From: Escherichia phage JP4
Strand: one strand, 5' to 3'
Sequence record: PQ330092
Length of the DNA: 64,000 nt
The position numbers and the translations under genes were made by a program. The notes below the pieces were generated by a model. It saw nothing but the letters and a program-made list of their open reading frames with translations. It made no database searches and had not been told where the DNA came from. This document shows positions 5,538 through 5,864 of the stretch, one piece after another (the first letter of the stretch is position 1; the number at the start of each line of letters is the position of its first letter).

Positions 5538-5566
5538 TTGACAATATCATCCAGTACTGGCATAAT
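5538..5566 (+). promoter_or_regulatory. Consensus promoter TTGACA-17-CATAAT driving a non-coding region
   Basis: No plausible + strand ORF until 5865. Confidence 0.6.
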
Positions 5567-5628
5567 ACTTACATCAAGACGAGAACGTCACTAACCCATA
5601 GGGTGCACAAATGTAACTGTATAATATT

Positions 5629-5659
5629 GATCAAAAAATGATCTGATCAATACTTGATC
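5629..5659. promoter_or_regulatory. Cluster of four GATC sites (two pairs spaced 11 bp) within TTGATCAA repeats
   Basis: TTGATCAAAAAATGATCTGATCAATACTTGATCAA read directly; located in a non-coding island. Confidence 0.4.
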
Positions 5660-5864
5660 AATTTGCGTAAAGTAGTATAATTCTATGCAGTTGGTTAGAC
5701 GAAAGGTTATGATTAGTAGTGCAAGTGTATAAAAATTTTCATGGTGTATCGTTCCGCACATATGGCAATGAATATGTGGTATCATGTGGATTGGAAAAAG
5801 TAAGAACAAGTAATATTATTGTCGCATTACAGTACTATAGTATTTTTATAATGAGGTTAAAATA

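Follow-up and report, generated by a model that had tools for sequence, protein, structure and literature searches.

What does a tight cluster of GATC sites do when it lies just behind a consensus promoter in the genome of a lytic jumbo phage? The question is raised by positions 5540-5864 of a 64,000-nt stretch of Escherichia phage JP4 (sequence record PQ330092; hereafter "the window", meaning the whole stretch analysed), which a sequence-only reading had taken for a non-coding island carrying paired Dam sites, of the kind seen at origins or Dam-controlled promoters. The source is an Asteriusvirus, i.e., a Rak2-like jumbo coliphage, and the 1 kb around the island was 97-98.5% identical to phages UB, ELP-22, CRJP21 and PBECO4. 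We found that the island is an optional early-gene cassette that consists of a promoter (P1) with its leader, four TGATCAA-type sites on a second promoter (P2), and a 48-codon gene (Table 1). As for the function of the sites, an operator that represses P2 is overall the best reading, albeit a tentative one.

The 3' 147 nt of the supposedly non-coding island proved to be a conserved gene. The claim that no credible plus-strand open reading frame (ORF) exists for about 300 nt did not hold: the ORF at 5719-5865 matched a known phage protein family (phrog_38664), stayed open in both Asteriusvirus alleles at 74% nucleotide identity, and showed a ratio of nonsynonymous to synonymous substitution rates (dN/dS) of 0.09-0.33, while the differences among the divergent codons, counted by hand, fell 11:7:20 on the three codon positions. 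The 121Q-type ORF, which starts with TTG, also remains open. Homologues of 47-62 aa were found in Erwinia phage Hallingskeid, six metagenomic relatives (P0003-P0008), Mimasvirus and Eneladusvirus; within the Hallingskeid clade dN/dS of the small gene was 0.05-0.27 (synonymous divergence ~0.5-2, several pairs being saturated). Judged by these substitution patterns, the ORF is under purifying selection. Since it is coding, the truly non-coding part of the island shrinks to 5534-5718 (185 nt). On the opposite strand, a 72-aa His/Cys ORF (5591-5809) had been called doubtful, rightly so: it is interrupted in the 121Q, Turkey5 and TH47 alleles, and we rejected it as not conserved. The GTG at which the 48-aa gene starts is overlapped by a 7-codon upstream ORF (MISSASV; ATG at 5710, 3 nt past the AAAGG, stop at 5731-5733), probably an incidental one given that the 121Q allele does not conserve it.

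The stop codon of the small gene overlaps the ATG of a DksA-like gene (TAATG), suggesting translational coupling; in phages that lack the cassette, the start of the DksA-like gene overlaps an upstream 65-aa gene in like manner. A search of IMG/VR with the DksA-like protein returned mostly T4-like phages and few jumbo relatives. Several Asteriusvirus records leave the 48-aa gene unannotated or annotate in its place the spurious minus-strand ORF (ELP-22). Unannotated homologous ORFs of 47-49 aa were also present in CBB (L050; 1192-1341) and GAP32 (L051; 401-541), with no GATC pairs upstream, and the CBB ORF overlaps the start of the next gene (ATGA).

Alignment with phAPEC6 identified the 332-bp unit as an indel cassette between 10-bp direct repeats, TTAAAATAAT: phAPEC6 carries one TTAAAATAAT copy, and there the upstream 65-aa gene is joined straight to the DksA-like gene. 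The cassette was missing from nine Asteriusvirus records (phAPEC6, UE-S1, ph0011, A4, ECO103 4-12-1, EC22.5-2, G17, Sharanji and EJP2), which keep only paralogous copies of its first ~85 nt, elsewhere in the genome. Where present, it occurs among Asteriusviruses as two alleles, the window type and the 121Q type, that are ~79% identical. In this genus the putative operator sites and the small gene are thus gained or lost jointly, as a single indel. The island lies ~10.7 kb inside a ~20.1-kb direct terminal repeat. Positions 1-14905 equal 20115-35019 base for base (0 mismatches), so that 14,905 bp are duplicated exactly with an offset of 20,114 bp; the junction 14905/14906 separates two tandem copies of the 20,114-bp unit and the window holds the repeat 1.7 times, which is what a concatemer, or an assembly joined at its ends, would show. 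Therefore every feature of 1-14905 occurs twice in the window. The unit length agrees with the direct terminal repeats of ~20-21 kb reported for related phages of the genus.

The four GATC sites lie at 5629, 5640, 5645 and 5656, within TTGATCAAAAAATGATCTGATCAATACTTGATCAA, with spacings of 11, 5 and 11 bp; the two 11-bp pairs of the sequence-only reading were thus confirmed as 5629/5640 (pair A) and 5645/5656 (pair B). With four sites in 31 bp, this was the tightest cluster in the 49,095 non-redundant bases, where the next tightest spans 91 bp; its density was matched by only 5 of 2000 dinucleotide-preserving shuffles (Poisson expectation, 0.005), and two of the only three 11-bp GATC pairs in the non-redundant window are in the island. 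Comparison with the genome average had been proposed as one test, and local density was ~55 times background. Across the window, GATC was not enriched (180 observed vs 195 expected), and as this count is not raised the excess is local. Moreover, no other tight GATC cluster was found in 50 kb of the relative PBECO4. The second-densest group of the window (10623-10713; four GATC in 91 bp, two of which, 10699/10710, form an 11-bp pair) falls within a 213-aa ORF (10510-11151), where nothing beyond coding sequence was indicated.

The constraint is not confined to the GATC tetranucleotide. Over the distinct sites of all lineages the conserved unit is T-GATC-AA, with T at -1 in 15 of 17, A at +1 in 14 of 17 and A at +2 in 13 of 17; in the 121Q allele all five sites read GATCAA and share one orientation. 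Pair B forms a 17-bp inverted repeat (7-3-7), which can be read also as a direct repeat of TGATCAA, and pairs A and B together form a 37-bp imperfect palindrome centred on 5644. These sites were the only repeats within the island. The matches to TGATCAA-N4-TGATCAA in IMG/VR, at least 120, were unrelated stretches that almost always held one site; so short a pattern is uninformative. Known host-factor sites (FNR TTGAT-N4-ATCAA, CRP, IHF, DnaA, the ARG box and the 7-1-7 Fur site), compared by eye with the sequence using their consensus forms, were rejected for mismatches in spacing or half-site. An 11-nt identity with the inside end of IS50 (GATCTGATCAA) was dismissed because it is present in the window-type allele only.

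The consensus promoter reported earlier was borne out: P1 matches the consensus at 11 of 12 positions and has in addition an extended -10 (TG at 5558-5559), with CAGTACTG in its spacer (5552-5559). Paralogues of P1 plus leader lie on the minus strand at 19746-19678, 18209-18131 and 16050-15994. Pair A occupies the UP-element position of P2, and the GATC at 5656 falls in the -35 of P2 (TTGATC). By paralogous alignment, P2 is homologous to the generic early promoters, and to the architecture, of neighbouring intergenic regions in the repeat; these regions have AGTACT motifs where the island carries TGATCA.

Two 11-bp GATC pairs were found upstream of the window-type, 121Q-type and Hallingskeid-clade homologues (L035, L039-L048), all three of which share one order: P1, leader, pair A, ~9-10 nt, P2 -35, P2 -10 and ribosome-binding site. 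Pair A, scored in the Hallingskeid-clade loci whose DNA extends far enough upstream, had the 11-bp spacing in all. The place of pair B relative to P2 differs by type: the window type has it on the -35, the 121Q type at +3 to +19, and the Hallingskeid type across the -10, with two GATC flanking the AATAAT; in all three positions the 11-bp spacing and the TGATCAA flanks are kept. The invariant blocks of the Hallingskeid clade are the leader, pair A, the CTTGAC of the -35 and TGATCAATAATT (pair B across the -10); the -35 TTGAC(A/T) and the -10 AATAAT are invariant, while the 17-nt P2 spacer and the 5' untranslated region (UTR) vary freely. Furthermore, this footprint persists though the synonymous sites of the adjacent gene are near saturation. 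Even where one GATC has been lost, as in Turkey5 (TTGTTCAA) and in L045/L046 (TTAATCA), the rest of the half-site is retained. The GATC cluster is non-random and functional.

Several of these features bear on how the sites work: i) The extended TGATCAA motif favours a sequence-specific binder; ii) The occurrence of pair B at three non-homologous positions fits occlusion, not one fixed effect on RNA polymerase; iii) Repeated, dyad-symmetric sites overlap the small gene's own promoter, as in autoregulatory operators; iv) In Asteriusvirus, sites and gene are co-inherited as one cassette, which suggests as ligand either the gene's own product (autorepression) or an always-present host factor. We infer from them, tentatively, an operator array acting on P2, whose binder is probably the cassette's own basic 48-aa protein, the most parsimonious ligand. 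The protein, on paired sites along the same face of the helix, would occlude P2 and would also block read-through transcription from P1, thereby governing when, or how strongly, the small protein and the DksA-like gene that it overlaps are expressed. Binding by the 48-aa product to its own operator would amount to negative autoregulation. As every site contains a Dam target, binding could differ on methylated, hemimethylated and unmethylated DNA.

The structural prediction is consistent with such a role. AlphaFold2, run on a nine-sequence alignment, gave four antiparallel strands and a C-terminal helix (predicted local distance difference test score, 88.9). The 48-aa product is predicted to adopt an AP2-like beta-sheet DNA-binding fold, its antiparallel sheet packed on the C-terminal helix as in the AP2/ERF-type architecture, and from this model DNA binding is a reasonable inference. 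Pfam returned no family at E <= 1 for the protein, hence no match to the AP2 profile (PF00847), and Foldseek found nothing significant in the Protein Data Bank; in BFVD the fold is present in many small uncharacterised phage proteins. A HMMER profile search of 1.84 billion representatives yielded 17 proteins at E <= 0.001, 15 of which were 47-74 aa long, while the other two, of 709 and 1019 aa, are long and repetitive and seem to be spurious.

Four observations weigh against an autorepressed operator: i) Neither TGATCAA sites nor GATC pairs lie upstream of the homologues from Mimasvirus (CBB, GAP32) and Eneladusvirus (Serratia BF, pEa_SNUABM_47), and the sites are therefore not constant companions of the protein family; ii) The residues of the predicted beta sheet differ considerably between the window and Hallingskeid types, though both have TGATCAA sites; iii) The start codon is GTG or TTG, and the Shine-Dalgarno spacing in Asteriusvirus is unusually long; iv) The GATC-centred palindrome pairs are self-complementary in RNA, so a role at the RNA level is possible.

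The main rival, which we consider rather unlikely, is a Dam/SeqA-controlled promoter that needs host factors only: the pairs, once a first round of phage replication has left them hemimethylated, would attract SeqA, or methylation would alter RNA polymerase binding, with P2 activity and P1 read-through following the replication or methylation state of the phage DNA. GATC is indeed the most constant core of the sites, the 11-bp distance within pairs never varies, the UP, -35 and -10 elements of P2 all carry sites, and the hosts are all Dam+ Enterobacterales; moreover the pair architecture has been re-created at different positions, as expected if the pairs themselves are needed. The IS10 pIN and dnaA promoters are Dam-sensitive, and SeqA stimulates lambda pR. 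The 11-bp phasing agrees with the in vivo preference of SeqA for GATC gaps of ~10 or 20 bp (PMC2912659), and for one Asteriusvirus, Sharanji, an encoded N6-adenine methyltransferase has been reported (PMC11895373), which also counts on this side. However, recognition by SeqA or Dam fails to account for the T-GATC-AA flanks, which are kept at re-created, non-homologous sites as well, and the alleles of Turkey5 and L045/L046 each retain the remainder of a half-site that has lost its GATC. In addition, the position relative to the core promoter is not fixed, making a single direct effect of methylation on the polymerase unlikely, and no other early promoter of the repeat uses GATC pairs. Thus, of the earlier proposal of SeqA spacing at a Dam-controlled promoter, the phasing and the location of the sites on promoters stood, but the conserved unit exceeds what Dam or SeqA is known to need.

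An operator and Dam/SeqA control can be combined, if binding is methylation-sensitive. In a methylation-reading operator the AP2-like 48-aa protein would sit on paired, Dam-bearing sites, and its occupancy, together with expression of the small protein and the DksA-like gene, would switch as replication turns the injected, fully methylated genome hemimethylated or unmethylated. This methylation-reading version we regard as decidedly unlikely.

A further rival is an element acting in RNA. P1 very likely makes a structured non-coding leader: the hairpin 5' of its core covaries (four of four pairs with double changes, 18 cells), and the covariation score was reached in 0 of 500 shuffles (0.39 vs 0.02-0.11 in slid controls). 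As an alternative to operator sites, UUGAUCA...UGAUCAA hairpins of 5-7 bp, or one 37-nt hairpin, would form in the 5' UTR of P1 transcripts, with effects on the small gene through stability, processing, pausing or translation. Arm 5626-5643 is 83% complementary to arm 5645-5662, in the minimum-free-energy fold of 5573-5730 the GAUC-containing repeat segments pair with each other, and the region lies downstream of a leader behaving demonstrably as structured RNA. But that fold is no better than those of shuffles (z = -1.8); no covariation is possible or seen, as the stems are invariant; and there is no terminator U-tract. Furthermore, P2 transcripts of the Hallingskeid and 121Q types would lack pair B or carry it truncated, since in these types it is placed at the P2 -10 or beyond, and the interleaving of conserved -35/-10 blocks with the pairs indicates a role at the DNA level. 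Such hairpins could matter in P1 transcripts only, and we give the RNA-level explanation a slim chance.

The origin of replication suggested earlier did not survive. With its GATC cluster in AT-rich DNA (32% GC) behind a strong promoter, the island recalls oriC or P1 oriR, and T4-type origins combine a promoter with an unwinding element; GC content is, however, only 4 points below the window mean, and the element is tied to promoter and gene in all lineages. No DnaA box (TTATCCACA, <= 1 mismatch) was found in 5534-5864, the nearest one-mismatch match (5214) being inside a coding sequence, and GC skew, positive throughout the repeat, made no turn. Absence of the cassette from the nine related phages, whose very existence implies that they replicate normally without it, argues against an essential origin. 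An origin or origin-like unwinding element was rejected on these grounds and is highly improbable. No more credible is a site for a nuclease, terminase or recombinase, or a target of cassette mobility: TGATCA hexamers are the Dam-regulated repeat unit of P1 pac, the cassette is an indel bounded by direct repeats, and an HNH endonuclease gene lies immediately upstream in Hallingskeid, but the site is 10.7 kb inside a 20-kb terminal repeat with fixed ends and not at a terminus, the TGATCAA repeats are internal to the cassette and away from its junctions, and the remaining Hallingskeid-clade loci that include upstream sequence (L039, L043 and L047) carry in that place a 196-aa product with no recorded Pfam family, not identified as HNH.

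Known systems resemble the element in part. The IS10 pIN, dnaA and lambda pR promoters likewise have GATC within or beside core promoter elements, on a phage or mobile-element promoter, in paired sites about one helical turn apart on the same face; unlike them, the island uses a 7-mer unit (TGATCAA) in four sites arranged as two pairs, whose position relative to -35 and -10 shifts between lineages. OxyR at agn43 and opvAB, and Lrp at pap, also involve several GATC inside repeated protein-binding half-sites at a promoter (the half-sites here being putative); opvAB likewise has four GATC in four sites (PMC4856963). Those are phase-variation switches of bacterial chromosomes with a known host regulator and other motifs, whereas the island belongs to a lytic jumbo phage and has no OxyR- or Lrp-like motif. 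The 17-bp 7-3-7 pair B is comparable to Cro/CI-type 17-bp operators, and the 11-bp site period to the 7+4 direct repeats of the Pho box. As with autoregulated small repressors of the Cro/CI type, repeats cover the promoter of the adjacent small gene and, in Asteriusvirus, are inherited with it; in contrast, the predicted sheet and helix (AP2-like) are neither helix-turn-helix (HTH) nor ribbon-helix-helix, and homologues in other genera come without sites. Compared with the phage AP2 proteins (HNH homing endonucleases and the CasPR anti-CRISPR silencers, bioRxiv 10.64898/2026.02.23.707548), the 48-aa protein shows no Pfam AP2 sequence match and is a stand-alone domain with no CapR, HNH or HTH partner; moreover AP2 domains usually bind G/C-rich motifs, while the candidate target here is AT-rich. 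With P1 pac, the 13-mers of oriC and the heptamers of P1 oriR, the island shares clustered GATC or TGATCA repeats, whose methylation in those systems controls a DNA transaction, but no packaging end coincides with it, close relatives do without it, it shows neither DnaA boxes nor iterons, and a promoter and a gene always accompany it. The element is a fresh example of a familiar kind, namely a putative operator array with embedded Dam sites on a phage early promoter.

Table 1. Coordinates of the cassette, its flanks and related features in the window (aa, amino acids)
Feature	Position	Strand	Details
Left direct repeat TTAAAATAAT	5525-5534	.	Contains stop codon of upstream 65-aa gene (5336-5533)
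Promoter P1: TTGACA, 17 nt, CATAAT	5538-5566	+	11/12 consensus; predicted start ~5573
Structured leader	5573-5618	+	5' hairpin GACG-AGAA-CGTC 5578-5589; core CCCATAGGGTGC 5595-5606; 3' arm GTAACT 5613-5618
Pair A: TTGATCAA-AAAA-TGATC	5627-5643	.	GATC 5629 and 5640; P2 UP-element position (-45 to -62)
Pair B: TGATCAA-TAC-TTGATCAA	5644-5661	.	GATC 5645 and 5656; overlaps P2 -35
Promoter P2: TTGATC, 16 nt, TATAAT	5654-5681	+	10/12 consensus; predicted start ~5688
Small gene, 48 aa, GTG start: MQVYKNFHGVSFRTYGNEYVVSCGLEKVRTSNIIVALQYYSIFIMRLK	5719-5865	+	AAAGG 5702-5706; phrog_38664, E = 4e-35
Right direct repeat TTAAAATAAT	5857-5866	.	From sequence read and phAPEC6 alignment
DksA/TraR-type C4 zinc-finger gene, 85 aa	5865-6122	+	Pfam PF01258, E = 3e-9; phrog_54; annotated in relatives
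Second island copy, identical	25648-25978	+	In second copy of terminal repeat
CCCANNGGGTGC copies	3937, 5595, 7952, 11226, 13479, 18089	+	Duplicates additional
CCCANNGGGTGC copies	15995, 16210, 18146, 19678	-	Duplicates additional

The leader belongs to a wider family. Its core motif, CCCANNGGGTGC, occurred 15 times in the window (0.5 expected), with ten copies per repeat unit and zero outside the repeat; every copy has a sigma-70 promoter on its own strand, whose -10 lies ~25-35 nt upstream. The motif is followed by N6 and GTATCT or ACGCCC, able to pair with GGGTGC; across the Erwinia-phage clade the core plus ACAAATGTAwCT is nearly identical. Copies of the leader motif were present in RaK2, Muenster, GAP32, CBB, phAPEC6 and Hallingskeid, and an IMG/VR scan with core plus flank recovered phage 121Q only. 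Rfam had no family for the leader: two chance-level matches (E = 0.017 and 0.42) lay outside the island, and none was in 14906-20200. Folding of a stand-alone minus-strand unit was not significantly above shuffles. We consider the CCCANNGGGTGC family a candidate set of promoter-proximal leader RNAs or small RNAs, possibly a new class of promoter-proximal regulatory RNA common to Rak2-like phages. The minus-strand copies are antisense to neighbouring genes, and the copy near 19712-19605 ends in a good terminator. At 18040-18210, between ORFs 17774-18004 and 18433-19044, two leader units stand face to face (cores 18089 on the plus and 18146 on the minus strand), whose transcripts would overlap as a sense/antisense pair.

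Other features of the repeat were observed alongside. AGTACT, the ScaI palindrome, was found window-wide and most densely in 14906-35019, with 133 copies per 20,114-bp unit (6.1 expected, i.e., 22-fold) and 65 copies in the 29 kb outside (7.4 expected); it occurs in the spacers of early promoters (CAGTACTG right before the -10), against the -35 (AGTACTTGCA), and in TTCAGTACTGAA palindromes. Terminator hairpins at 3875-3910 and 7895-7930 contain in their stem the -35 (TTGACT) of the next promoter, e.g., AAAGGGATTGACTCCGGTCAGTCCCTTTGCTATTATAT, and similar terminator/promoter units lie just upstream of the leader cores 11226 and 13479. Terminator and promoter thus share one compact unit, and the P1 of the Hallingskeid-type module is built likewise. 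Near the start of the terminal repeat, the ORF-poor stretch 15277-16580 carries a ~38-nt tandem duplication (CTTTCTATATAGGAGTACTATTATTCAGTACTGAATCAA, twice; ~16430-16520, minus strand) as well as two tandem leader units.

The findings first of all correct the annotation: many records lack the 48-aa gene or call it inconsistently, and the "non-coding origin" reading is to be dropped. Early-gene control in Rak2-like jumbo phages is essentially unstudied: a literature search found no transcriptome or transcription mapping for Asteriusvirus and no account of these motifs or of the function of the small gene. The cassette offers a compact, testable module of two promoters, four phased sites and one 48-aa protein, placed before a DksA-like factor whose expected target is host RNA polymerase. 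Should the small protein prove to be the binder, an AP2-like repressor would be defined in its minimal, stand-alone form; sites that read Dam methylation would provide one of the few examples of epigenetic timing in a phage that is strictly lytic. Should the methylation-reading operator be true, a lytic jumbo phage would possess a replication-coupled timer of early genes, carried on a mobile cassette.

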